Assembly: GCA_028700905.1 (NCBI GenBank)
Contig: JAQVRT010000015.1
Coordinates: forward strand, 1-14,124
Length of the DNA: 14,124 nt
Source of the DNA: Candidatus Iainarchaeum sp.
GTDB taxonomy: Archaea; Iainarchaeota; Iainarchaeia; Iainarchaeales; CSSED10-239
Reading direction: 5' to 3'
Shown here: positions 841 to 14,124 of the stretch, piece after piece
How the letters are laid out: the number at the start of each line of letters is the position of its first letter
Position numbering within the stretch: the stretch's first letter is position 1
Notes under the pieces: generated by a model
The model's input: the letters and a program-made list of their open reading frames with translations, nothing else
Database searches by the model: none
Told to the model about the DNA's origin: nothing
Made by a program: the position numbers and the translations under genes

Positions 841-973
841 AAAAAGTATATCTAAAACTTATTTTTGGTATGTTTTTAATATCCATATATTATAAATATT
901 CTTCTTATGTATTATATTAATATAAATAAAAAATGTTTCTATTAAAAGTATATAAAAAAAGGTGTTTTAAAAT

Positions 974-1303
974 ATGGCTAATATAAAATCAAAAGATAGT
1001 TTTTCTTGGTCAAAAGGATCTACTAATTATTCTTATAACCAAAGAGGGTATGATTCTCCAGTTTCTTTATCAAAAATTGTTACAGATATTAGAAAATTAC
1101 AAAGATTACTTTCAATTTCTTTAAATTCTTTAGATAGAGAAGATTTAACTGCTTTAAAGAAAGATATTTCTTATCTTCAACATTTAATTTCAGATAACAT
1201 CTCAAAAAAAGACGTTCCTTCAAATATTGAAAGAGATTATGATAGATTAAATGAAGATGTTAGATATAAAATTTCAGAAATAGATAAAAGAATCCTTGGT
1301 TAA
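974..1303 (+). CDS. Hypothetical protein, 109 aa, predicted helical/coiled-coil; no recognisable family
   Basis: Intact ORF with GGTG about 12 nt upstream of the ATG. Codon usage resembles its neighbours. The C-terminal two thirds show heptad-like spacing of L/I and charged residues. Its stop overlaps the convergent gene's stop in a shared TTAA at 1300-1303. Confidence 0.5.
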   Translation: MANIKSKDSFSWSKGSTNYSYNQRGYDSPVSLSKIVTDIRKLQRLLSISLNSLDREDLTALKKDISYLQHLISDNISKKDVPSNIERDYDRLNEDVRYKISEIDKRILG

Positions 1304-2604
1304 TGATTCTTTTTATATATTTTATTAATAATATATGTTAAAAGAATAGATCCTATTGTTAATAATAATATACCTAAAATACTTTGCATAAATTTATCTG
1401 CAACTGCAAAAGAAACACCAATACCAAAGATTAAAAGCCCACTAAATAATTTTAATACTTTTCCATGTTTTTCTTCCATTTTACTTATTTTTAAAGTAAA
1501 TATGGCTATTGCAAATAAAACAATTTCATCTAAAAGATAAATTAGCATATATGTACCTAAAAGTGTATAATAACCTGCACTTGAAAGAGTACTATTTGCA
1601 ATCATGTTTGCCCAAAGTAAAGGAAGTCCTGCTGTACATGGTATCTCTAGTATAGTTACTCCTCCAGCTAAGATTATTGTTCCTAACATAATTGCAAATA
1701 AACTATTTTTAGGATTCATTATATTTCTAATCCTATCATATATTTTTGGTTTTTCTTTTTCAGAAATTGTTAGAGAAATTCCTTTTTTATACCAAAAATA
1801 ATCTTTAATGTTTATTATTCCAAAGATTACTGCTACAAGAACAATTATTATTTTAATTATTGGGCTATAAAAGAAAATTAAAGCATTTAATACACTAGTT
1901 ATAAATAATCCATAGATAATAGCAGTTACTGCTAAAAAAGTTATTCCTATTAAAAATATTTTCTTCCTAGATCCAGAATAAACAACTATACTTAATAAAA
2001 ACATTAAAACCCATAAAGAACAAGGATTTAATCCATCTACAAAAGAAATTATTAAAGTATTTAAAAATAAAGATTTATTTCCAAGATCTATTTTTTTACC
2101 AAAAAAATTTATTGTTTTATTTTCATCTCCAGAAACATATTCTTCTGAAGAAGGAATTTTATTTGTTTTTGAAAGGATTGTTTTTTCAGGGCATGAACAA
2201 TTAATATTAGTGTTATAACATCTATCAATTTCTTTATCAAGATTGTTTTTAATATTTTCTTCTCCACTAATATATGTTTCTCCAATAAACACTATTGGAA
2301 AAATATCAACTTGTAGAGAATATAAATTTTTATATTTTTCAAAGAGTTCTTTATTATCAGCTTCTAAAAGATTATATTTTTCAGTAATTATAAATGGATA
2401 TTTATTTTCAATATATTTGAAATATTCTAAAGTATTTAAACATTGAGTGCAGTCAGAAACATAAAATAAATGAACATATACCTCTTCAATTTCTGGTGTT
2501 TCAAAACTAGTTTCTTTTTGTTCAAGAGCTGAAATACTTCCTATATATGTAGTACTTATAATTAATACTAAAAATATAAAAAGTATAATTTTTTTTAAAT
2601 TCAT
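1300..2604 (-). CDS. Membrane thiol:disulfide protein: signal anchor, extracytoplasmic thioredoxin/glutaredoxin-like domain (CTQC), and a 6-7 TM CcdA/DsbD-like (LysE-superfamily) domain
   Basis: 434 aa. The N-terminus has a hydrophobic signal/anchor, MNLKKIILFIFLVLIISTTYIGSISA. The redoxin-like segment is VYVHLFYVSDCTQCLNTLEYF...FPIVFIGETYISG, followed by a Cys cluster CYNTNINCSCPE. The polytopic domain carries Pro-Cys motifs in the first helix (DGLNPCSLWVL) and fourth helix (LEIPCTAGLPLLW). That placement matches the CcdA/DsbD TM1/TM4 cysteine arrangement. Confidence 0.65.
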   Translation of the reverse strand: MNLKKIILFIFLVLIISTTYIGSISALEQKETSFETPEIEEVYVHLFYVSDCTQCLNTLEYFKYIENKYPFIITEKYNLLEADNKELFEKYKNLYSLQVDIFPIVFIGETYISGEENIKNNLDKEIDRCYNTNINCSCPEKTILSKTNKIPSSEEYVSGDENKTINFFGKKIDLGNKSLFLNTLIISFVDGLNPCSLWVLMFLLSIVVYSGSRKKIFLIGITFLAVTAIIYGLFITSVLNALIFFYSPIIKIIIVLVAVIFGIINIKDYFWYKKGISLTISEKEKPKIYDRIRNIMNPKNSLFAIMLGTIILAGGVTILEIPCTAGLPLLWANMIANSTLSSAGYYTLLGTYMLIYLLDEIVLFAIAIFTLKISKMEEKHGKVLKLFSGLLIFGIGVSFAVADKFMQSILGILLLTIGSILLTYIINKIYKKNH

Positions 2605-2631
2605 TTAGTCAACTCTTTTTTTATAATGAAA

Positions 2632-3201
2632 TTAAAATATATTTTTAAAGAAATTTGCTATTCTTTTAAAAAAACCAATTTTTTCAGTTTTTTCTTTTTT
2701 AATTTCTTCTCCAAGATATTTAACATACTTGTCATTAGTTAAATATTCTTTAAATTCTTCTTGGTTTTCAAGATAACTATAAGAATCTTTACAAGTGTTT
2801 TCTCTACAATTATTGATTATTGTTTCCATTTGTCCTTGTATACTTTCTGAAAATCCAATCCATACTTTCTCTGAAATAAAAGTTATAGGTACACTTGTGC
2901 TTCTTTCTTGAAAAGCTTTTGAGAATTCAAGTAATAGTTTTGAATTGTTTCTTTGAGTATCAAGTTCAAAATAATAAACTCTTACATCTGGATTATTTTT
3001 TACATATTCTGTAAAAAATTCTTTTTCTTGAGCACAATAAGGGCAAGTTGAGGTTCCAAAGAAATACACATTTATTTTTGCTTCTTGGTTTGTATCAATT
3101 ATTACATTCTCATTAACATCAACATTTACATCTTCTGAAAAGACTGTGTTTGAAAAAATGGTTACAAGCACCATAATTATAAATAAATATTTTAATTTCA
3201 T
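2632..3201 (-). CDS. Secreted or surface-tethered glutaredoxin/thioredoxin-like protein with a CPYC active site
   Basis: 189 aa. Signal peptide MKLKYLFIIMVLVTIFSNTVFS. Redoxin segment INVYFFGTSTCPYCAQEKEFF...VPITFISEKVWIGF, then the pair CRENTC. The C-terminus IGFFKRIANFFKNIF is amphipathic. A GGAG lies 9 nt upstream of the ATG, inside the end of the preceding gene. Confidence 0.7.
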   Translation of the reverse strand: MKLKYLFIIMVLVTIFSNTVFSEDVNVDVNENVIIDTNQEAKINVYFFGTSTCPYCAQEKEFFTEYVKNNPDVRVYYFELDTQRNNSKLLLEFSKAFQERSTSVPITFISEKVWIGFSESIQGQMETIINNCRENTCKDSYSYLENQEEFKEYLTNDKYVKYLGEEIKKEKTEKIGFFKRIANFFKNIF

Positions 3202-3204
3202 AAA

Positions 3205-3420
3205 TTATTTCTCCTTTTTTTCTAAAAATTCATTTAAATCTTCGAGTAAAGATATTTGATCTATACCATACATTTCACAAACTGCACCAATTTCTAAAAT
3301 ATCCATTTCCATTCTTGCCATCGGACAAGTTACGCATGGAAAACCGTGTGCCATTAATATCTCAAAAATATCTTCTCTTTCAAGAAGTTCTTTTAATTTT
3401 GTTTCTGAAGTTATTTTCAT
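3205..3420 (-). CDS. DUF1858-type small redox-disulfide protein (hybrid-cluster-protein-associated redox disulfide domain family)
   Basis: 71 aa. HGFPCVTCPMARMEMDILEIGAVCEMYGID...LLEDLNEFL matches the G-x-x-C-x-x-CP...E...HGID...LN pattern of this family as I recall it. No signal peptide, so it is probably cytoplasmic. Confidence 0.7.
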   Translation of the reverse strand: MKITSETKLKELLEREDIFEILMAHGFPCVTCPMARMEMDILEIGAVCEMYGIDQISLLEDLNEFLEKKEK

Positions 3421-3422
3421 AG

Positions 3423-4547
3423 TTAATCAAATTTTTGATTTATTTTTTTAATCTCATTAATTAATTCTTTAGTGCTTTCTAAAGTGTTTCCTTTGCCTAA
3501 AGAAATTCTTAAAATTCCATTTTTTTTATTTTTTAAAATTTTTAGTGCTGAAACTACATGACTTTTTTCATTATTATTTGAAAGACATGCAGAACCTGTT
3601 GAAACATAAAATCCTTTTAAGTCTAAAGATAAAAGAATTGATTCAGATTCAATATTTTCAAATAATAGACAAACATTGTTTACAAGTCTATTTTCTTTTG
3701 ATCCTAATATTTTAATTGAAGGTATGTTTTCAATTTCTGAAAAAATATAATCTCTTAATTCTTTTTCTCTTAAAAGTTCTTCTTTATCTAAAGATTTTAT
3801 TGCTTCTCTAAGCCCAATTATACCAGGAACATTTAAAGTTCCGCTTCTTAAATTATTTTCATGTCCTCCTCCATGAAAAAGAGGAGTTAGGTTAATATTT
3901 TTTTTAATAATTATTGCACCTATGCCTTTAGGGCCATAGATTTTGTGTGCATTAATTGTTATAAGATCAATATTTTGTTCTATAAGATCTATTTCAGTTT
4001 TACAGAAGCTTTGACATGCATCTGTGTGTAAAAAAACTTTTTTTTCTTTACAGATTTGTCCAATTTTTTTAAGGTCTTGTAAAGTCCCAATTTCATTATT
4101 TCCATGAATAATTGAAACCAAAATTGTATCTTTTCTAATCTTTTTATTTAAATCTTCTAAGTCAATTAATCCTTCTGAATTGTTTTCAATATATTCTATA
4201 TCATATCCTTTTAGTTTAAGATATTTTGCAGAATTTAGAATTGAATCATGTTCTATTTTACTTATTAAAATATGATTTCCTTTTTCTTTATAACTTTCTG
4301 CAATTCCTTTAAGTGCAAGGTTATTACTTTCTGTTCCACCAGAAGTAAATATTAGTTTATGGTTAATACCATTTAATTTTTTTAAAATTTCTTCTCTTGC
4401 ATTTTCAACTTCATCTTTTGATTTTTCACCAAAAGAATGCATGCTTGATGTGTTTGCAAATTTTTCTGAAAAATAAGGTTTCATTTTTTCAAAAACATTT
4501 AAGTCAATAGGGCAAGTTGAAGCATAATCAAAATATTTAGTATTCAT
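3423..4547 (-). CDS. Cysteine desulfurase, NifS/IscS type (class V PLP aminotransferase fold)
   Basis: 374 aa. Motifs seen: FTSGGTESNNLA, HTDACQS, the PLP-lysine motif INAHKIYGPKGIGA, RSGTLNVPG, and the catalytic-cysteine loop STGSACLS. The start overlaps the ArsR stop in ATGA at 4544-4547. Confidence 0.9.
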   Translation of the reverse strand: MNTKYFDYASTCPIDLNVFEKMKPYFSEKFANTSSMHSFGEKSKDEVENAREEILKKLNGINHKLIFTSGGTESNNLALKGIAESYKEKGNHILISKIEHDSILNSAKYLKLKGYDIEYIENNSEGLIDLEDLNKKIRKDTILVSIIHGNNEIGTLQDLKKIGQICKEKKVFLHTDACQSFCKTEIDLIEQNIDLITINAHKIYGPKGIGAIIIKKNINLTPLFHGGGHENNLRSGTLNVPGIIGLREAIKSLDKEELLREKELRDYIFSEIENIPSIKILGSKENRLVNNVCLLFENIESESILLSLDLKGFYVSTGSACLSNNNEKSHVVSALKILKNKKNGILRISLGKGNTLESTKELINEIKKINQKFD

Positions 4548-4855
4548 TTTTTCTCATTTATCTTTCTTTTACATTTCCCATCACAAAAATCTCTCATATG
4601 ATCATTTAATATTTTAATAAGTGGTTTTATGGTTTTCTTGTTTAAAGAATATTTAATATATTTTCCTTGTCTTTGAGAAAAAACTACATTACATTCAAGA
4701 AGTATTTTTAAATTATGGCTAACCTTTGATTGTTCTTCATTAATATCTTTACAGATATCAGTTACAAATTTATCTGATGCATATAAAGAATTAATGATTT
4801 TCCATCTGGTCTCATTTGAGATTACAGTAAAAAAATAATATGATGCGCAGTTCAT
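4544..4855 (-). CDS. ArsR/SmtB-family winged-helix transcriptional regulator with a C-terminal H-x4-C-x3-C motif
   Basis: 103 aa. ISNETRWKIINSLYASDKFVTDICKDINEEQSKVSHNLKILLECNVVFSQRQGKYIKYSLN is a typical ArsR HTH core. It lacks the classical ELCVCDL site but has HMRDFCDGKC near the C-terminus and a Cys at residue 3. Confidence 0.85.
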   Translation of the reverse strand: MNCASYYFFTVISNETRWKIINSLYASDKFVTDICKDINEEQSKVSHNLKILLECNVVFSQRQGKYIKYSLNKKTIKPLIKILNDHMRDFCDGKCKRKINEKK

Positions 4856-4877
4856 ATTATATATTATATAGAAAATG

Positions 4878-4885
4878 TTTAAATA
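4878..4885 (-). promoter_or_regulatory. Candidate TATA box (TATTTAAA on the minus strand) for the ArsR operon; spacing suggests a leaderless transcript
   Basis: The element is centred about 26-27 nt upstream of the ArsR ATG at 4855, and there is no Shine-Dalgarno in between. Many TATA-like strings exist in this AT-rich DNA, so support is weak. Confidence 0.3.
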
Positions 4886-4918
4886 GTTATTTGTTTAGAG
4901 TTTATTCTTGTTTTCAAA

Positions 4919-6118
4919 TTAGTTTTTGTCTAAAATAAACTCTTTTGCTTTAGATAAATCTCCATTATAAAGAATATCAAAAAATCTTTGATAATCAAAG
5001 TCTTTGGAGATATTTGTTTGAGAGATCTGTTCAAAGAAAATACTTTTTGAAATTTCAAAAAGATTGCCTTTATTTTGTTCAATACTTTTAAGTTTTTCAA
5101 CACTTTCTTTTAATTTTTGTTCTTGTATTTTATTTGAAAAAGAAATGTAAAAATAATCTTTATATTTATCCTCAATTTCTTTAAGATTAATACTTTTTAA
5201 AAAATAACCTTTTAGTAATTCTCCTTTAAGCCTTATTCTTAGGAGAGGTTTTTTATCTTCTTTTTTTTCAATTAGTTTTTCAATCTCTAAAGTTATAATT
5301 TCAATTGTTTTTTCAGGAGTTGTTAACTTAAGATCTAAATCTTTATAGAAAACTTTCCTTGTATTTTTAATTGCATGAAAATCTAATTGATTTGTTTTTG
5401 TATCTAGAATGAAAAATCCTTTTTCAGTATCTGATTCAATTTTTTTATTTTGTGTAGAAACAGTTGACCCTGACATTATAAATCTTGTTTTTTCATCAAG
5501 TGGTTCTATTACTTTCCAATGAAGGTGTCCATTTGCTATAATATCAAAACCTTTTGGAAGGTTACTTAAAGATAACATTTCTTCACTTTCAAAAGGAAGA
5601 TATTCTTTAAAAGATTGATGAAGAAGTAAAATGTTATACCCTTCTTTAGGTGTAGGATTCCATTTATCTAAAATATCTTTTGCAAATCTATCTGGAACTC
5701 CTGAAAGACCAAAAACATTTACTTTTTCTTCTTCTTTTTCTATAGTTACTGAATCTGCATGTACAACTCTTAAAAAATTCATAACTTCTAAAAGTTCAAC
5801 AGTTGATTTAAAGTCTTTACCTCTAAATTCATGATTTCCAATAATTCCTATCATTGGTATTTTTAATTTTCTTTCTTGTCTTGATTTTAAATTAATTTTA
5901 TTTTCAATATCTACATTGTTAAGCACAGAAATAGCTTCATAATAAACTTCGTGTGTAGGTATGGTTTTATCAAATAAATCTCCACAAGTAATTATAAAAT
6001 CAATATTTTCTTCTTTAATCTGCATGAATGCTTCTGATAATTGAACAAAAGAATCCATTTCAAGATCTGTTCCAAAATTAAGGCCTAAGTGCCAATCACT
6101 AAATATTGCAATTTTCAT
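4919..6118 (-). CDS. mre11: Mre11-type DNA double-strand-break repair nuclease (calcineurin-like metallophosphoesterase)
   Basis: 399 aa. All phosphoesterase motifs appear in order: SDWHLG, CGDLFD, GNHE, LLLHQ, GHLH. They are followed by a Lys/Glu-rich C-terminal region. There is no rad50 on either side. Confidence 0.85.
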   Translation of the reverse strand: MKIAIFSDWHLGLNFGTDLEMDSFVQLSEAFMQIKEENIDFIITCGDLFDKTIPTHEVYYEAISVLNNVDIENKINLKSRQERKLKIPMIGIIGNHEFRGKDFKSTVELLEVMNFLRVVHADSVTIEKEEEKVNVFGLSGVPDRFAKDILDKWNPTPKEGYNILLLHQSFKEYLPFESEEMLSLSNLPKGFDIIANGHLHWKVIEPLDEKTRFIMSGSTVSTQNKKIESDTEKGFFILDTKTNQLDFHAIKNTRKVFYKDLDLKLTTPEKTIEIITLEIEKLIEKKEDKKPLLRIRLKGELLKGYFLKSINLKEIEDKYKDYFYISFSNKIQEQKLKESVEKLKSIEQNKGNLFEISKSIFFEQISQTNISKDFDYQRFFDILYNGDLSKAKEFILDKN

Positions 6119-6203
6119 AAATTTTACCTAATGTTTATAAACTATTCTAATTATTAAATATATACCTATGAAACATTATTTATAGTTTATGTAATGTTTT
6201 TTA

Positions 6204-6274
6204 GCCTCAATGGCAGAACGGTCATGCATCCGCCTGCAGAGCGGAAGAATAGGGTTCGACTCCCTATTGAGGCT
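6204..6274 (+). tRNA. tRNA-Cys (anticodon GCA), 71 nt, no encoded CCA
   Basis: Folded by hand. Acceptor GCCTCAA/TTGAGGC. Anticodon stem TCCGC/GCGGA with loop CTGCAGA, giving anticodon GCA. T-arm TAGGG-TTCGACT-CCCTA. 4-nt variable loop. Discriminator U, as expected for tRNA-Cys. It is the clearest GC-rich island in the window and is followed by TTTT. Confidence 0.9.
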
Positions 6275-6370
6275 TTTAATAGTTTAAAAGGATTTTTAAA
6301 ATATAGCAATTACAAGAAAAAAACCTTATGTTTCAAAAGGAACTTTACCAAGAATATCTAAATAAAAAAC

Positions 6371-6593: not shown

Positions 6594-8741
6594 CTAAACA
6601 GAAAGAAGATTCTTTAAAAGATCTCTTTCTTGTTTATAAATTGTATCTTTATATTCTAATTGTTCTTTATTAATAATTACTCCATTGATATTTGAATCAA
6701 TATATGTTTTAATATTTGAAATTGTATTTTTAGAATTAATTTCTGCAATTCTCATAATTTTATTTTCTTTACATATTTTAATAACTTCTTTTACTTTTAC
6801 AAAATCAATTTCTTCTAAATTAAAGGTTATATTTTCTATACCTCTTGAAATATATTCTGAAATTATATTTTCTTTAATATTTTCAACTAATACTCCTATC
6901 TTAGACTCTGTATTTTCTTTAACAGGAATTATTTCATCTGCAGATTTAATATTTTCAAGTAATATATTTATTCTACTTTTAAGTTCCATAATAGCTTCAA
7001 TTTCATAACTTGATACATTTTCAGTAATTAGGTTTTGTTTATGAGTATTTACTTTATAGAAAATTTCTTTTCCTTCAAATATTTTAGTAATTTCTAAAAG
7101 TTTATTTTTAATAGTTGGAACTAGTATATTAATATTTTCAAGCATACTTCCTTTTTCATAATTTGTAAATAAAGAATCTATATTTAAAACAATTCCATCA
7201 ATATCAGGTAAATTAATATTTTTTACTTCGTCTAGATTATTTATTTTAACAAATATTTTTGTAATTGTCTTTGGATATTCTGGATCTTTATTTTGAGCTT
7301 TTTCAATAGATACTTCATTTTCTCTTTTTGTTTCAGTGACTTTTGTAATTGGTGGGGCAACATACCCTATAACACTATACACTTTACCATTAAATCCATT
7401 TACAAGAACTGCTTGACCATCTCTTAAAATTTCTGTAGACCTTTCAGTGTGTACAACACAAGGCACATCATATTTTTTTGCAATTAATGCTGCATGACAG
7501 ATTGTACTTCCTGCATCTGTTACAATTCCTTTTGCTTTCCTTAATGTTTGTGACATTTCAAGAGTTGTCATTTTAGTTACAAAAATAGTGTTTTCATTAA
7601 CTCTTAAAAGATCTTCTTTATTATTAACTATTTTTACAATTCCTATTGAAAGTCCGTTTGAAACTCCAATTCCTTCTAAAAGTAAATTTTTTTTATAACT
7701 GTCAAGTTTCTCTTGATAAGTTGTAATATCTATTTTTTTCTTTTTCTTAATTTTTTTAAGATTAGGATCAATTGGGTTTACACTAACAATTAGAAATTCT
7801 TCATTTTCATCCATTACCCAATTAACTTCAAGAGAAGTTCCATAAATCATTTCAAGTTTATTTCCTATGTTTGCAAGTTCATTTAAATCTCTTTGATTTA
7901 ATTTTTGTTTATCATCATCTTTAACATCTACATTTGTTTTTGTTGTTTTTCCAACAATTCTTTTAAGCATCCATTCTTGATTTGATTTTGTTTTTTTAAT
8001 TGTAGTTAATGTTTTTTTATTAATTTCATAATGATCAGGAGTAACTTCTGTAATTAAACTTTTTCCTCCAAAACCATGTATTGCTTCAATTACAATTGTA
8101 TCTTTTGAATCATTTTTAGAAGTTTGCATTATTCCTGATTTTTTGCCAGGTATCATTTTTTGAATAATTATTGAAAGATGTATTTTATTTTCTTCAAAAC
8201 CTTTCTTAAACTTATATTCTAAGATTTCAGGAGAATAAAGATCTGCCCAACATTCTTTAATGCTGTTTAATACTTCTTCTCTTCCTTTAATATTTAAAAA
8301 ACCTGTATGTCTTTCTATTGGGTCAAGTTCTTTTAAAGGATATTCTTCTGAAGATACTGATGCTCTTATAGCAGTATATTCATCTACTTTAGTATTCATA
8401 AATCCAACTTTTGATTCTCCAAGCTTTGTATACATTTTTAAGACATCAGATATAAAATCTTCATCAAATTTTTGTTTTAAAAAAAGTGTTCTTATTTCAT
8501 TTGATTTATTTTCAATATCTTCTTTGTTGTTATAATCAATAGTTTTTAAGATTTCATTTATTTTTTCTTTTAAGTTATTTTTTTGTACAAAATTAAAGAA
8601 ATTTTTATAGTTTATAACAAACCCTCTTGGAAGAGGAATGTTTGCTTTTGAAATCTCTGATAAAATATGTGCTTTATATCCTACTTCTAGGACTTCGTGA
8701 TCTGAAATTTCTTTAAGCCATTTTATGTTTGTCTCAAGCAT
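6594..8741 (-). CDS. PEP-utilising enzyme family protein (PEP synthase / pyruvate,water dikinase-like) with a divergent C-terminal domain
   Basis: 715 aa. The N-terminal PPDK_N/ATP-grasp-like region is divergent: VGYKAHILSE, AIRASVSSEEYP, IIQKMIPGKKSGIMQT, VIEAIHGFGG, LEVNWVMDE...VSVNPI. The central swivel domain is clear: GIVTDAGSTICHAALIAKKYDVPCVV, with the His codon at about 7494-7496. The C-terminal 240 aa or so only loosely resemble the PEP/pyruvate-binding barrel. Confidence 0.8.
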   Translation of the reverse strand: MLETNIKWLKEISDHEVLEVGYKAHILSEISKANIPLPRGFVINYKNFFNFVQKNNLKEKINEILKTIDYNNKEDIENKSNEIRTLFLKQKFDEDFISDVLKMYTKLGESKVGFMNTKVDEYTAIRASVSSEEYPLKELDPIERHTGFLNIKGREEVLNSIKECWADLYSPEILEYKFKKGFEENKIHLSIIIQKMIPGKKSGIMQTSKNDSKDTIVIEAIHGFGGKSLITEVTPDHYEINKKTLTTIKKTKSNQEWMLKRIVGKTTKTNVDVKDDDKQKLNQRDLNELANIGNKLEMIYGTSLEVNWVMDENEEFLIVSVNPIDPNLKKIKKKKKIDITTYQEKLDSYKKNLLLEGIGVSNGLSIGIVKIVNNKEDLLRVNENTIFVTKMTTLEMSQTLRKAKGIVTDAGSTICHAALIAKKYDVPCVVHTERSTEILRDGQAVLVNGFNGKVYSVIGYVAPPITKVTETKRENEVSIEKAQNKDPEYPKTITKIFVKINNLDEVKNINLPDIDGIVLNIDSLFTNYEKGSMLENINILVPTIKNKLLEITKIFEGKEIFYKVNTHKQNLITENVSSYEIEAIMELKSRINILLENIKSADEIIPVKENTESKIGVLVENIKENIISEYISRGIENITFNLEEIDFVKVKEVIKICKENKIMRIAEINSKNTISNIKTYIDSNINGVIINKEQLEYKDTIYKQERDLLKNLLSV

Positions 8742-10385: not shown

Positions 10386-11156
10386 ATGACTAAAAATTTA
10401 ATTTCTATAAAAAATTTATCAGTTTCTGTTGAAGAGAAACAAATTTTAAACAATTTCAACTTAGATGTAAAAAATCAAGAGATCCACGCGATTATGGGAC
10501 CAAATGGTTCTGGAAAGTCAACTCTTGCATACTCTATTATGGGGCATCCTAAGTATAAAATTTCTTCTGGGAAAATAAAATTTTTTGAAAAAGATCTTTT
10601 AAAATTATCTGTTGATAAGAGAGCAAGAGAGGGAATATTTTTATCTTTTCAATCTCCTTTAGAGATTCAAGGTCTTAATTATTTTTCTTTTTTAAAAAAT
10701 TCTTTTTCATCAACTCATCAAGAAAGAATTTCTCCATTAAAATTTAATACTTTAGTAAAGGAAAGAATTTCTCTTTTAAACATGCCAGAAAACTTTTTAT
10801 CTAGAGATTTAAATGTTGGTTTTTCTGGTGGAGAGAAAAAACGTGCTGAAATTTTACAACTTAATTTATTAAATCCTAAACTTGCAATTTTAGATGAAAC
10901 TGATTCTGGTCTTGATATTGATTCTTTAAAGCTTGTTTGTAATTCTATAAATAATTTAAAAAAAGAAAATAAAGAATTTTCTGCAATTGTAATTACCCAC
11001 TATAAAAAAATACTTGATTTTTTAAAACCAGATTTTGTACATGTCATGTATGAAGGAAAAATAATTAAAAGTGGAGATAGTTCTTTTGCAAACTATATTG
11101 AAAAAAATGGTTTTACAAAAATAATTGAAGACTATAAAAAAAGTCTAAATAGATAA
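10386..11156 (+). CDS. sufC: Fe-S cluster assembly ATPase SufC
   Basis: 256 aa. Walker A GPNGSGKST, ABC signature FSGGEKKR, Walker B AILDETDSGLDID, H-loop ITHY, and the SufC-typical HPKY segment. It directly precedes sufB. Confidence 0.93.
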   Translation: MTKNLISIKNLSVSVEEKQILNNFNLDVKNQEIHAIMGPNGSGKSTLAYSIMGHPKYKISSGKIKFFEKDLLKLSVDKRAREGIFLSFQSPLEIQGLNYFSFLKNSFSSTHQERISPLKFNTLVKERISLLNMPENFLSRDLNVGFSGGEKKRAEILQLNLLNPKLAILDETDSGLDIDSLKLVCNSINNLKKENKEFSAIVITHYKKILDFLKPDFVHVMYEGKIIKSGDSSFANYIEKNGFTKIIEDYKKSLNR

Positions 11157-11159
11157 ATT

Positions 11160-12605
11160 ATGAATAGAAATAAAATAGATGGAAGAGTTAAAGATTCTTC
11201 TTTAAAAAAAGCTAAAAAAGCTACAAAAATAAAAAAATATGATTTTTCATATTCTACAAAAGATTATAAAATTAAGTTTGATAAAGGGTTAAATGAAAAA
11301 GTTATTAAAAATATTTCAAAAATAAAAAAAGAACCTAAATGGATGCTTGATTTTAGATTAAAAGCTTATAAAACATTTATAAAACAAAAATTGCCTTCTT
11401 GGGGAATAATGCCACTTGAAGAAATTGATTTCAAAAATATAACTTATTTTGCATCTGTTGGTGATTCTGAAAAAACAAATTGGAAAGATGTTCCAAAAGA
11501 TGTTAAAAAAACTTTTGATAGAATAGGGGTTCCAAAAGCTGAAAGAGATTTTCTTGCAGGTGTAGGTGCACAATATGATTCTGAAGTAATTTATCATAAA
11601 ACCAAAAAAGAATTTGAAGAAAAAGGTGTTGTTTTTTTATCCATGGATGAAGGATTAAAAAAATATCCTGAACTTGTAAAAAAATATTTTGGTTCTGTAA
11701 TTCCAATTGACGATAATAAATTTGCGTCTCTTAATTCTGCGGTTTGGTCAGGAGGTTCTTTTGTTTATGTCCCTAAAGGTGTAAAAGTTGATACTCCTCT
11801 TCAAGCATATTTTAGAATAAATTCTTCAAATATGGGACAATTTGAAAGAACTTTAATAATTGCAGATGAAGGTAGTAAAATCCATTATGTCGAAGGATGT
11901 ACAGCTCCAAGATTTTCAACACAGTCATTGCATGCAGCAGTTGTTGAAGTTATTGCTTTAGAAGGTGCTAGTATAAGGTATACCACAATTCAAAATTGGG
12001 CAAATAATATTTATAATTTAGTTACAAAAAGAGCTTTTGCTTATAAAAATGCAAGTGTTGAATGGGTAGATGGTAATTTAGGTTCAAGATTAACCATGAA
12101 ATATCCTGCAATTTATCTAAAAGGAGATAATTCTAGAGGAGAAGTATTATCTATTGCAATTGCTTCAAAAAATCAAAAACAAGATGCAGGTGCAAAAATT
12201 GTTCATCAAGCAAATAATACCACCGGAACAATTGTTTCAAAATCAATTTCAAAAGATGGTGGTGAATCTGCATATAGAGGGCTTGTAAGAATAGATAAGG
12301 GTCTTAAGAATGTAAAATCTAATGTTAGATGTGATGCAATTTTAATTGATTCAATAAGTAAGACTGACACTTATCCTGTAATATTTGTAAATGAACCTAC
12401 AGCTGAAGTTTCTCATGAAGCAACTGTTGGAAGAATAGGTGAAGAACAATTATTTTATTTAATGTCAAGAGGTATTGATGAATCTAAAGCAATTACTTTA
12501 ATTATTTTAGGTTTTATAAGTGAATTTTCAAAACAAATTCCTTTAGAGTATGCAGTAGAACTTAATAGATTAATTGAAATGGAGTTTGAAAATTCTGTAG
12601 GATAG
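11160..12605 (+). CDS. sufB: Fe-S cluster assembly scaffold protein SufB
   Basis: 481 aa. Conserved stretches: FASLNSAVWSGGSFVYVPKGVKV, FERTLIIADEGSKIHYVEGCTAP, NWANNIYNLVTKRA, and HEATVGRIGEEQLFYLMSRGI. Starts 3 nt after the sufC stop. Confidence 0.93.
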   Translation: MNRNKIDGRVKDSSLKKAKKATKIKKYDFSYSTKDYKIKFDKGLNEKVIKNISKIKKEPKWMLDFRLKAYKTFIKQKLPSWGIMPLEEIDFKNITYFASVGDSEKTNWKDVPKDVKKTFDRIGVPKAERDFLAGVGAQYDSEVIYHKTKKEFEEKGVVFLSMDEGLKKYPELVKKYFGSVIPIDDNKFASLNSAVWSGGSFVYVPKGVKVDTPLQAYFRINSSNMGQFERTLIIADEGSKIHYVEGCTAPRFSTQSLHAAVVEVIALEGASIRYTTIQNWANNIYNLVTKRAFAYKNASVEWVDGNLGSRLTMKYPAIYLKGDNSRGEVLSIAIASKNQKQDAGAKIVHQANNTTGTIVSKSISKDGGESAYRGLVRIDKGLKNVKSNVRCDAILIDSISKTDTYPVIFVNEPTAEVSHEATVGRIGEEQLFYLMSRGIDESKAITLIILGFISEFSKQIPLEYAVELNRLIEMEFENSVG

Positions 12606-12611
12606 GTTTAT

Positions 12612-13487
12612 ATGTTTATAAAAATTAATTTAAATAATTATAAATTAAAAGAAGTTTCTAAAAGTATTTTAAATACTTTAAATAAACTTAATCTTTCTAA
12701 TTATAGTGAAATCTATTTAATAGATGATTCTATTAAAGATTTTTCAAGTTTTAATATTTCTTCAGTTAAAAATAATTCTTTAATCATTTTTAATAAAATA
12801 TCTAATAAAAGTTTATTTGAAGTTTCTGATTTTAAAAATTTAAAACAGAAAAACATTATTTATTATTTTCAAAACACTAAATCCTTAAATTTCATAAGAG
12901 ACTTTAAAGTTAATGATTTTATTTATAATAATAATTTTATTTTAGATAGATCCACCATCTATATTTCAAATCTTTATTTTGATTTAAATAATTTAAAATA
13001 TAATCAAGATTCTTTTTTAAAAAAAGATTCTCAATTAAATCAGAATGATGTTTTACTTTTATCTAAATCTCAAAAAGCTTATATTAACATAAGAAATAAT
13101 CATCTTTATAGAGAAACCATCTCAAATACAACTATTAAAAATGTTTTAAAAAACAAATCTTTTTCAAGATATGATGGTATGATAAATATTTTAAAGTCTG
13201 GAGATTTTTCAAAAGCATATCTTGAAACTAATAGTATGCTTCTTTCAGATATCTCTAGGTCTATTAGTGTGCCTATGCTTGAAATAGTTCCAAAAAATGT
13301 AAAAGCAACTCATGCTGCAACAGTTGAACATGTAACTGAAGAACAATTATTTTATTTATCTTCAAGATCTTTATCTAAAAAGAATGCTTATAATTTAATG
13401 GTTTCTTCTTTTTTAAAAGCAAACATTTCTTTTTATCCTGAAAAGATAATTAGTTTTATTGAGAAAAAAATAAAAGATAAATTATGA
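12612..13487 (+). CDS. sufD: SufD-like Fe-S assembly protein, short and highly divergent
   Basis: 291 aa. Only the C-terminal third shows SufB/D signatures: YDGMINI, AYLETNSMLLSD, and ATHAATVEHVTEEQLFYLSSRSL. The N-terminal 170 aa or so are N/K/S/I-rich low complexity. Its position after sufB supports the call. The TGA stop overlaps the next start in ATGA. Confidence 0.7.
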   Translation: MFIKINLNNYKLKEVSKSILNTLNKLNLSNYSEIYLIDDSIKDFSSFNISSVKNNSLIIFNKISNKSLFEVSDFKNLKQKNIIYYFQNTKSLNFIRDFKVNDFIYNNNFILDRSTIYISNLYFDLNNLKYNQDSFLKKDSQLNQNDVLLLSKSQKAYINIRNNHLYRETISNTTIKNVLKNKSFSRYDGMINILKSGDFSKAYLETNSMLLSDISRSISVPMLEIVPKNVKATHAATVEHVTEEQLFYLSSRSLSKKNAYNLMVSSFLKANISFYPEKIISFIEKKIKDKL

Positions 13488-13903
13488 GTGATGATTATAT
13501 CCCAAGTCAAATAATCTTAGATTATTATTCTAATCCTGTAAATTATGGTGTGATAAAATCTTTTGATATTAAAATAGAAGGTAATAATTCTGGATGTAGT
13601 GATAAAGTTACAATTTATGTTAAATTTTCAAAAGATAAAAAAATAATTAAAAATATTTCATTTGTTCATTCAGGGTGTGTAATCTCAAAAGCAGGTGGAT
13701 GTATTGCAACTGAGCTTTCTTTAAATAAAAAAATAGAAGATGTTATTAACTTAAAACCTGAATCAATTATTGAAAATTTAGATGGTGTTTTACAAACAAG
13801 AGTAAGATGTGCTTATTTAACTTTAAATCTTTTAAAAGTTGCTTTAAAACAATTTATTTCTGAAAAACCAAAAACTCCTGTTAATTTTTCTTTAACTATT
13901 TAA
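13484..13903 (+). CDS. NifU/IscU/SufU-family Fe-S cluster scaffold or sulfur-acceptor protein
   Basis: 139 aa. Three conserved Cys contexts: NSGCSDKV (Cys38/Asp40), HSGCVISKAGG (Cys65), and TRVRCAYLTLNLL (Cys109). There is no LPPVK motif. The start is translationally coupled to sufD. Confidence 0.8.
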   Translation: MSDDYIPSQIILDYYSNPVNYGVIKSFDIKIEGNNSGCSDKVTIYVKFSKDKKIIKNISFVHSGCVISKAGGCIATELSLNKKIEDVINLKPESIIENLDGVLQTRVRCAYLTLNLLKVALKQFISEKPKTPVNFSLTI

Positions 13904-13906
13904 TTA

Positions 13907-14124
13907 TTATTTCCTCTTTAAACTAAGGTTTTCTGCATATTTAAACTTTCCAAAGTTTTTTCCAAGTTTTTCATTTTTTGATTTATCTCTATAATGAATA
14001 ACTCTCTCTTCTCTTTGTTCAATAGTTTCTGTAGATATTATGCCAGGTCCTCCCACACACCCTCCAGTACAGACAAGCATGTCAAGAAATCTTACTTTTT
14101 TATTTTCTCTAAATTTCATAATGG
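13907..14124 (-). CDS. C-terminal end of a [FeFe]-hydrogenase-like (Fe-only hydrogenase large-subunit C-domain / Nar1-like) protein; 5' part lies outside the window
   Basis: VRFLDMLVCTGGCVGGPGII resembles the H-cluster L3 motif M-x-C-x-G-G-C-x-x-G-G. The reading frame stays open from the listed Met (14119) to the window edge, so that Met is probably internal. The assignment rests on one motif only. Confidence 0.55.
   Translation of the reverse strand, partial: IMKFRENKKVRFLDMLVCTGGCVGGPGIISTETIEQREERVIHYRDKSKNEKLGKNFGKFKYAENLSLKRK

Follow-up and report, generated by a model that had tools for sequence, protein, structure and literature searches.

Several described systems come close to the locus considered here. 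The minimal ISC system (MIS) has been defined as a cysteine desulfurase together with a scaffold protein (PMC12192291). Proteins of the CcdA/DsbD type, including the DsbD and ScsB fusions, join a polytopic membrane domain of six helices, by fusion or by pairing, to extracytoplasmic thioredoxin (Trx)-fold domains with CxxC motifs. Among regulators, IscR binds its cluster through three cysteines and one histidine. Elements that recall each of these stand side by side in a five-gene cluster at positions 1300 to 4855, on the minus strand, of a 14,124-nucleotide stretch of archaeal DNA (contig JAQVRT010000015.1, Candidatus Iainarchaeum sp., GenBank assembly GCA_028700905.1), the whole of which is called the window here. 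The original prediction for this DNA had joined the five genes into one path leading from a desulfurase to the cell surface. Such an integrated relay is not supported by the comparative data: the five-gene synteny is found only in close relatives, and distant relatives keep ArsR, IscS, IscU and DUF1858 without the redoxin and membrane protein pair. We consider it likely that the cluster consists of two side-by-side units, probably co-transcribed and mechanistically independent, which are joined only in the subclade of Candidatus Forterrea multitransposorum (Ca. Forterrea).

The five open reading frames (ORFs) were taken from the six-frame ORF list of the window. Module A starts with the gene of a winged-helix regulator of the ArsR/SmtB family (4544..4855, minus strand, 103 aa), continues with that of a group-I (IscS/NifS-type) pyridoxal phosphate (PLP)-dependent cysteine desulfurase (3423..4547, minus strand, 374 aa) and ends with that of a small cytoplasmic CxxC protein of the DUF1858 family (3205..3420, minus strand, 71 aa). 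Module B starts with the gene of a secreted or anchored redoxin of the Trx/glutaredoxin (Grx) fold with the motif CPYC (2632..3201, minus strand, 189 aa), followed by that of a Grx-fused membrane protein with seven transmembrane (TM) helices (1300..2604, minus strand, 434 aa). The coordinates confirm the close co-directional packing described earlier, with a 4-nt overlap between the arsR stop and the desulfurase start (4544-4547). The desulfurase gene is 2 nt away from that of DUF1858 (3421-3422), the latter is 3 nt away from the redoxin gene (3202-3204), and 27 nt lie between the redoxin and membrane protein genes (2605-2631). Packing of this kind is ordinary operon structure. All of the cysteine motifs quoted in the original prediction are found in the translations (HMRDFCDGKC, STGSACLS, PCVTCP, CPYC, CTQC, NPC(195) and IPC(323)). 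Profile searches and structural models also show that its gene identities were right, namely an ArsR regulator, a class-V desulfurase of IscS/NifS type, a DUF1858 protein, a redoxin of the Trx fold and a membrane protein whose external domain has a CxxC.

In a comparison scan of one genome per GTDB species, the same gene order was found in the complete genome of Ca. Forterrea (locus L001, CP045477.1), with amino-acid identities of 92-99%. This organism is a DPANN archaeon of the Iainarchaeota/Diapherotrites (PMC5905446). The window is matched at 99-100% identity by L085, a contig from a metagenome. Loci L080-L083, in which the DUF1858 protein is 67-77% identical, have the order ArsR-desulfurase-IscU-DUF1858-redoxin-membrane protein. 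The order DUF1858-redoxin-membrane protein is present in all loci of the Forterrea subclade, down to 67% DUF1858 identity. Since a 20-kb region is wholly collinear there, with SufCB, RadA, the phosphoenolpyruvate (PEP)-synthase-like protein and Mre11 encoded at one flank of the cluster and ACS, H+-PPase and POR at the opposite flank, the five-gene order in this subclade is not independent evidence of function.

Outside the subclade, each module was surveyed by way of its own hallmark gene. For module A, the contexts of ArsR orthologues were inspected in L094, L095, L096 and L097. Two other Iainarchaeota (L094, L095) have Mre11-ArsR-Aminotran_5-NifU_N-DUF1858 and then a convergent CoA ligase gene, a Woesearchaeota locus with unrelated flanks (L096) has ArsR-Aminotran_5-NifU_N, and in a Nanoarchaeota locus (L097) ArsR is followed by a desulfurase gene that ends at the contig end. 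No redoxin or membrane protein gene lies beside module A in these four loci. Judged by gene order, ArsR-IscS-IscU appears to be a DPANN-wide operon to which DUF1858 was added in Iainarchaeota. For module B, 79 species-level loci of the membrane family were examined, one genome being taken for each species and the flanks reaching to 10 kb wherever the contig was long enough; tblastn and the DUF1858 hidden Markov model (HMM) were run on six-frame translations, and the neighbours within 6 kb were clustered and identified with Pfam. DUF1858 occurs within 10 kb of the membrane-family gene in L001 only and in none of the 78 other species, and a desulfurase occurs there in L001 and L029 only, that is, in one of those 78. 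Outside the Forterrea clade, Fe-S genes were found adjoining the membrane family in L029 alone, a locus from Anaerolineales.

The desulfurase of module A matches Aminotran_5 (PF00266) with 265 bits (E-value 1.2e-78) and the IscS subfamily model NF002806 with 306.6 bits against a cut-off of 304. It stays below the equivalog level of both TIGR03402 NifS (398 vs 530.75 bits) and TIGR02006 IscS (366.7 vs 643.2 bits). Its sequence has the AHK context of the PLP lysine and the SACLS loop of the catalytic cysteine (STGSACLS), and the closest solved structure is IscS2 of Archaeoglobus fulgidus (PDB codes: 4R5F/4EB5, E-value 7e-94). In relatives, an IscU (NifU_N) gene is placed between those of the desulfurase and DUF1858 (L080:9609-9998; L082:3118-3501). 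This gene is missing from that position in the members of the Forterrea genus (the window, L001, L085 and L086). Since IscU is present in the operons of L080-L083, the ancestral operon would have had it, and the Forterrea genus appears to have lost it from the operon position. The sole NifU_N/IscU-like sequence in the window (13484..13903) belongs to the suf cluster and is 29% identical to the operon IscU of the relatives. This cluster, at 10386..13903 on the plus strand, encodes SufC, SufB, a SufD-like protein and a NifU_N protein of SufU/IscU type (Pfam: ABC_tran, SUFBD_core with SufBD_N, SUFBD_core and NifU_N, respectively), and within the window it has no desulfurase gene of its own. Considering that IscU is gone from the operon, it would most likely be SufU/SufBCD, 6 kb away, that take the desulfurase sulfur. 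The simpler alternative offered in the original prediction, in which the desulfurase serves iron-sulfur (Fe-S) assembly, essentially matches the comparative data. As a separate observation, the IscU gene of one Iainarchaeote (L094:7460-9055) is split by an intein with a LAGLIDADG endonuclease domain, and the matches to NifU_N are divided between the two ends of the 531-aa product.

The DUF1858 protein scores 33.9 bits with PF08984 (cut-off 32.2). With TIGR03980, the hybrid-cluster-protein-associated redox disulfide domain, it scores 41.3 bits, just under the cut-off of 44.95, and no hybrid cluster protein gene lies near the DUF1858 gene. Its cysteines C29 and C32 (CxxC) and C48 are all invariant, and 2K53 is the closest solved structure. 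Fusions of DUF1858 to SufT/DUF59 are known (PMC4982691), and so is a selenoprotein form with CxxU (PMC9312934). The gene is located 3' of IscS-IscU in L080, L082, L091, L092, L094 and L095. In contigs resembling the Candidate Phyla Radiation (CPR), which encode DUF1858 proteins 52-58% identical, it is 3' of MnmA-IscS-IscU (L091, L092), of SufC-SufB-MnmA (L087) or of MnmA (L090, L093), and no redoxin or membrane-family gene is present in these contigs (L087, L090-L093). The wider DUF1858 context is a small sample, because the word-indexed search with the 71-aa query found close relatives only and the metagenome pattern scan gave 10 loci. These surroundings are consistent with an auxiliary redox role in sulfur transfer or in the assembly of Fe-S clusters. 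Nothing specific favours the earlier assignment of DUF1858 as the donor of the membrane protein, its conserved partners being IscS, IscU, MnmA and SufCB.

The 103-aa regulator was matched by HTH_5 (PF01022; 35.7 bits vs cut-off 22, E-value 7.7e-9) and by the NCBIfam model HTH_metalloreg (NF033788; 59.3 bits vs cut-off 55). It missed the equivalog models BigR (27.9 vs cut-off 155 bits), CmtR (28.9 vs 150) and TsoR (35.2 vs 115), and none of the known ArsR sensory sites (α3 CVC, the α5 metal site, the BigR/SqrR Cys pair) could be assigned to it at equivalog level: there is no CVC, and the α3 region reads ICKD. The named sources of its 81 orthologues (43-100% identity) are all archaeal, except for one partial sequence, and in all four of the orthologue contexts examined the gene lies directly 5' of an IscS-type desulfurase gene. 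By this conserved adjacency the protein appears to be a dedicated regulator of the desulfurase operon. Among 21 aligned orthologues C55, H86 and C95 never vary, and conservation of C91 is at least 90%. Because this set of three cysteines and one histidine resembles the IscR ligand set, it is probably with these four residues that the protein senses the status of Fe-S, thiols or metals. It is noted that a Cys/His-rich ArsR leads IscS-IscU operons in Iainarchaeota, Woesearchaeota and Nanoarchaeota.

In module B, the 189-aa redoxin has an N-terminal hydrophobic signal in its sequence and only sub-threshold Grx/Trx matches (19.5 vs 22.9 bits). It aligns with domain 1 of fused homologues of the membrane protein as well as with redoxins that CPR loci encode as separate proteins, and its invariant residues are F47, F48, C53, P54, C56, V104, P105 (at the cis-Pro position), C132, C137 and D139. 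The 434-aa membrane protein has no match in Pfam or NCBIfam. It is laid out as a signal or anchor, an external Grx-like domain (CTQC) and a seven-TM domain of about 270 aa. In the family as a whole (36 members aligned), a signal or anchor is followed by a Grx-like domain 1 (mostly CPHC), an optional Grx-like CxxC domain 2 and the membrane domain of about 270 aa. The membrane domain carries the invariant motifs DGxNPC195SxW in TM1 and ExPC323TAGxPxxW in TM4. Both cysteines are present in 36/36 members, so that the conservation of the TM1/TM4 pair expected in the original prediction is borne out.

AlphaFold2 (AF2) models of the membrane protein, with pLDDT values of 79.8 for the full-length chain and 74.7 for the membrane-only one, have seven TM helices, of which TM1 and TM4 are interrupted at the Pro-Cys motifs. 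Residues ~40-135 form a confident Trx fold (pLDDT >90), and in Foldseek this Grx domain matches thioredoxins with TM-scores of 0.55-0.69 at a probability of 1.0. The Glutaredoxin HMM is matched by 28 of the 36 family members (best E-value 1.7e-14). Since the TM3-TM4 loop, the TM5-TM6 loop and the C-terminal tail are rich in lysine and arginine, in sequence as well as in the models, the Grx domain is predicted to lie outside and TM1 and TM4 to be antiparallel. This predicted topology agrees with the external placement of the redoxin domains proposed before.

The number of Trx-fold domains in the membrane protein varies among close relatives, with two in Ca. Forterrea (L001:10001-11662), a single one in the window protein and no such domain in L080/L082. 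A stand-alone redoxin gene is kept in L001, the window, L080 and L082; in most homologues the redoxin is part of the membrane protein chain, as domain 1, and in the Forterrea clade it is a protein of its own. This variable domain content among close relatives indicates that the redoxin acts jointly with the membrane domain. An origin of the stand-alone redoxin by gene fission from the membrane protein was considered and rejected, Ca. Forterrea having a stand-alone redoxin together with a three-domain membrane protein. Because both are carried there, the stand-alone redoxin is a paralogue of domain 1, and the membrane protein of the window has lost its own domain 1. The membrane family is large. 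More than 1000 homologues were found in a word-indexed database, and an exhaustive profile search gave 3730 clusters at 50% identity with E<=1e-3 and 715 with E<=1e-30. The one-genome-per-species GTDB set holds at least 529 relatives, in DPANN, CPR/Patescibacteria (several of them mislabelled), Anaerolineae, Bipolaricaulota and others.

The original prediction had likened the membrane protein to those of the CcdA/DsbD family, to which no homology could be detected. The Pfam HMMs of DsbD (PF02683) and DsbD_2 (PF13386), searched up to E=10, match none of 36 full-length members and none of 17 membrane domains, and the membrane-family profile has no match among PDB sequences. In hhalign, the family aligned with five genuine DsbD_2 proteins of neighbouring CPR loci at a probability of 0.3%. 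Foldseek with the membrane-only AF2 model found no match in the PDB (best E-value 0.63), and hhalign of the two halves of the membrane domain showed no similarity, with no internal 3+3 repeat detected. The one weak Pfam similarity is that to SfLAP (3/36 members, best E-value 3.6e-4). A genuine DsbD_2 neighbour protein also matches SfLAP weakly (1.8e-4), as well as the Cad cadmium-resistance family. CcdA/DsbD homology of the membrane domain was therefore rejected as undetectable by Pfam, NCBIfam, the PDB profile, hhalign and Foldseek. Since it is not demonstrable, the protein is not filed under CcdA/DsbD, which it resembles in the function suggested for it. It should be mentioned that some family members carry the name "CcdA/glutaredoxin" from the Joint Genome Institute (JGI).

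Of the neighbours of the 79 membrane-family loci, GCV_H is the most frequent (26 loci), followed by ArsR (19), the ArsP_1 permease (18), a CoADR/Nox-like Pyr_redox_2 protein (16), an unknown secreted protein of 217 aa (15), LplA (14), LipA (13) and Thioredoxin_3 (13); the stand-alone redoxin is another recurrent neighbour. In its 26 loci the GcvH-like gene is always immediately 3' of the membrane gene on the same strand, 26-274 nt past the matched region. It occupies this position in 23 of 30 low-GC (CPR/DPANN) loci and is absent there in the window and in Ca. Forterrea. The GcvH-like gene is an orphan, and GcvT and GcvP are not among the recurrent neighbours of the membrane-family loci. This gene order suggests a lipoyl-protein-dependent membrane thiol system in the CPR/DPANN loci, and literature searches on the membrane family or on a link between GcvH and a membrane redoxin returned no description of one. 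Loci of the GcvH type span L002-L033, L046 and L078 (e.g. L009:9863-14450 and L008:4366-9243), and the GcvH-like gene often has a stand-alone redoxin, a CoADR/Nox-like FAD disulfide reductase (SPCALPY), LipA and LplA on its 3' side. The ArsRs of the CPR loci are of the CC/CVC subtype, 27-36% identical to the ArsR of the window, and lie 2-5 kb upstream of the membrane gene. They were rejected as support for a five-gene module, being a different, CVC-type subfamily that heads ArsR-Thioredoxin_3-ArsP units. The trio of a CVC-type ArsR, a Thioredoxin_3 protein (83-85 aa, CPxC) and ArsP_1 is seen in many CPR loci (L008:311-2037, L009:7494-9186, L015:6382-6953), and five CPR loci also have a genuine DsbD_2 protein.

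We propose that module A is a unit of sulfur mobilisation and Fe-S assembly of the minimal ISC type. The desulfurase would make an enzyme persulfide from cysteine. In the relatives, the persulfide sulfur would be passed to the adjacent IscU scaffold; in the genome of the window, it would most likely reach SufU/SufBCD, 6 kb away, as well as thiolation enzymes. The CxxC of DUF1858 could, for example, supply reducing equivalents to resolve the persulfide or to assemble clusters. Module B would be an extracytoplasmic thiol-disulfide system, of a family that is present in CPR, DPANN and Anaerolineae. In this system the Pro-Cys pair of TM1 and TM4 would most likely connect the external Trx-fold domains with a dithiol carrier in the cytoplasm by shuttling disulfide and dithiol across the membrane, much as in CcdA/DsbD. 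The probable direction is the export of reductant, which is favoured because the neighbours elsewhere (lipoyl-GcvH and an NAD(P)H-type FAD disulfide reductase) are of low potential and because the two-Cys core parallels CcdA. In the genome of the window, thioredoxin is the default candidate for the cytoplasmic partner, and DUF1858 is a possible one. Placed 3' of module A, module B would be co-regulated with Fe-S assembly without being dependent on the desulfurase. The junction of the modules most likely goes back to an insertion behind the last gene of an operon, in a genome that is compact, and co-regulation is a plausible consequence.

Some observations weigh against two fully independent units. 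Because the gap between the DUF1858 and redoxin genes is only 3 nt, co-transcription and some functional tie, at least co-regulation, are likely. In the Anaerolineales locus (L029:2781-10068), SufB-SufD-SufS-SufU are directly upstream of the membrane gene and co-directional with it. Module B of the Forterrea clade has no GcvH gene, and a small cytoplasmic CxxC protein adjoins it instead. The mostly CPHC motif of domain 1 is DsbA-like and bears on the direction of electron flow, and the survey reached over 10-kb flanks in one genome per species. These points are drawn on most directly by a reading in which all five genes form a single ArsR-regulated relay from cytoplasm to surface, with DUF1858, perhaps loaded with persulfide, donating to the membrane cysteine pair and the pair in turn to the external redoxins. 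The tight co-directional spacing (2, 3 and 27 nt) would fit such a relay, as would the DUF1858-redoxin-membrane protein order that is constant through the Forterrea subclade down to 67% DUF1858 identity, and the locus in Anaerolineales gives a second instance of Fe-S genes beside the membrane gene. DUF1858 is a redox-active CxxC/CxxU protein (PMC9312934), and the lack of the adjacent GcvH-like dithiol carrier that 26 other loci have leaves a vacancy for a donor. We nevertheless regard this relay as unlikely. DUF1858 is older than the junction, ending ArsR-IscS-IscU operons without module B and accompanying MnmA, IscSU or SufCB in CPR; it lies within 10 kb in 0/78 of the other species with module B; the synteny within the subclade is not independent, the 20-kb region being collinear; and one Fe-S-adjacent locus in 78 other species is in our judgement too few to tell apart from chance. 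A related and likewise improbable proposal makes the membrane protein a new transmembrane thiol relay of quinone-less cells, fed by lipoyl-GcvH (reduced by the FAD reductase) in most CPR/DPANN, with DUF1858 replacing this carrier in the Forterrea lineage. If true, the takeover by DUF1858 would couple sulfur mobilisation and Fe-S assembly physically and regulatorily to surface thiol redox.

Two further readings change the role of module B. It could run in the oxidative direction, as a quinone-independent counterpart of DsbA/DsbB that forms disulfides and sends electrons inward to a cytoplasmic acceptor in organisms without a respiratory chain. The consensus CPHC of domain 1 is the DsbA motif and the CPYC of the window redoxin is the DsbG/Grx motif; the conserved extra pair of external cysteines (C132/C137) implies that structural disulfides are made outside the cytoplasm; and CPR and DPANN organisms are generally without quinones. 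This direction is quite doubtful all the same, since lipoyl-GcvH and the NAD(P)H-type FAD disulfide reductase are of low potential and, by standard potentials, would fit reductant export better, and since the two membrane cysteines are arranged as in CcdA and not as the two loop pairs plus quinone site of DsbB/VKOR. Handling of soft metals or metalloids, in the manner of MerP/MerT or CadD, with the external CxxC binding the metal, the TM cysteines passing it on and the ArsR sensing it, seems to us very unlikely. MerT-type transporters do use Cys pairs in TM helices, genes of the ArsR family (19/79), ArsP_1 (18/79) and Thioredoxin_3 (13/79) lie within 6 kb of the membrane gene, and 3/36 members are weakly similar to SfLAP, a similarity that, together with one to Cad, the genuine DsbD_2 neighbour shares. 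The ArsRs concerned are of another subtype (CC/CVC, 27-36% identical), however, and sit in an ArsR-Trx_3-ArsP unit of their own 2-5 kb off, and the gene conserved right beside the membrane gene is that of GcvH, accompanied by those for lipoylation and for the FAD disulfide reductase. In addition, the external domains are like oxidoreductases in their Trx fold, their CxxC and the proline in the cis-Pro position, and the orthologues of the window ArsR go with IscS/IscU and not with the membrane gene. Two adjoining units, of which module B exports reductant, thus remain the reading that we prefer.

Upstream of arsR, an A/T-rich spacer of 63 nt (4856..4918, minus strand) separates the cluster from a co-directional gene for a Mre11-like phosphoesterase (4919..6118, minus strand). 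The spacer has a TATA-like TTTAAA ~25 nt before the arsR ATG, followed by ATATAATATATAAT, in a genome of 24% GC, and it is a candidate for the archaeal promoter of the cluster. Bacterial consensus scans gave counts of promoters and terminators equal to those in shuffled sequence, and the consensus may not apply to this archaeal host. In the interval 900..6300 they found one terminator-like site, within the membrane protein gene, compared to ~0.9 in shuffled sequence. The window, with a GC content of ~24%, also holds genes for PorC, a PEP-synthase-like protein and RadA, in addition to the Mre11-like, suf and NifU_N genes and tRNA-Cys. The tRNA-Cys (GCA) at 6203-6275 on the plus strand (Rfam 59.8 bits; ARAGORN) is divergent, upstream of the Mre11-like gene and ~1.3 kb from the cluster; its proximity to a cysteine-rich cluster is probably a coincidence. 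Downstream, a convergent ORF of 109 aa (974-1303, plus strand) overlaps the stop of the membrane protein gene by 4 nt. This ORF is kept in L001, L080 and L082 (54-96% identity) and is without family assignment. The PEP-synthase-like protein (6594-8741, minus strand, 715 aa) comprises PPDK_N and a mobile PEP-utilizers domain; no Pfam match covers the ~260 residues at its C-terminus, and PEP-utilizers_C was not recognised there. At the window end, a short ORF (13907-14119, minus strand) with CTGGCVGGPG resembles the C-terminal part of [FeFe]-hydrogenase-like proteins and is a fragment without a Pfam match. A Fe_hyd_lg_C gene adjoins RadA in the relatives L094 and L095.

A coupling of the desulfurase to an exported thiol pathway, as first framed, would have represented a new type of system, and the data point instead to a lineage-specific juxtaposition, which is ordinary. 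Of real interest are the DPANN-wide pairing of ArsR with IscS-IscU, the membrane family with its GcvH/lipoylation neighbourhood and a possible part of DUF1858 in the membrane relay of the single lineage without an adjacent GcvH. This large family, for which Pfam and NCBIfam hold no model, is a candidate for extracytoplasmic cysteine redox in ultra-small quinone-less cells, and the ArsR that heads IscS-IscU operons in DPANN may be an archaeal functional counterpart of IscR or SufR.

We have compared both modules with the described systems. Module A shares with the MIS, as represented by the A. fulgidus IscS-IscU complex (4EB5), the group-I PLP-dependent cysteine desulfurase (E-value 7e-94). In relatives the desulfurase gene is directly followed by that of a NifU_N scaffold, as in the MIS; this pairing is present in L080-L083, L091, L092 and L094-L096 and absent from the window, whose operon is without the scaffold gene and has only 2 nt between the desulfurase and DUF1858 genes. 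The MIS has been described without an adjacent carrier gene (PMC12192291), and the same holds here. The window operon differs from it in starting with ArsR and ending with DUF1858, neither of which is in that description of the MIS. The regulator is like IscR and SufR in being a small winged-helix protein encoded by the first gene of a desulfurase/scaffold operon, and like IscR in its set of three cysteines and one histidine (C55, H86, C91 and C95). It is unlike both in fold family, being ArsR/SmtB HTH_5 and not Rrf2 or DeoR-like.

For module B, the use of a lipoyl dithiol as redox carrier, as in GcvH-L of Staphylococcus aureus (PMC12440151, PMC4518038) and the mycobacterial Lpd-DlaT-AhpD system, is suggested likewise for the CPR/DPANN loci, and the literature searches found no link of such lipoyl-carrier antioxidant systems to a membrane thiol relay. 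Neither the window nor Ca. Forterrea has the neighbourhood of GcvH, LplA, LipA and FAD reductase seen in those loci. With CcdA/DsbD, the membrane protein shares a polytopic domain predicted to have a proline-preceded cysteine at helix breaks in antiparallel TM1 and TM4, and the fusion or pairing of that domain with extracytoplasmic Trx-fold CxxC domains. It differs from them in having seven predicted helices compared to six, in the lack of detectable homology, and in that the conserved cytoplasmic neighbour of its family is GcvH with the lipoylation genes, and not thioredoxin.

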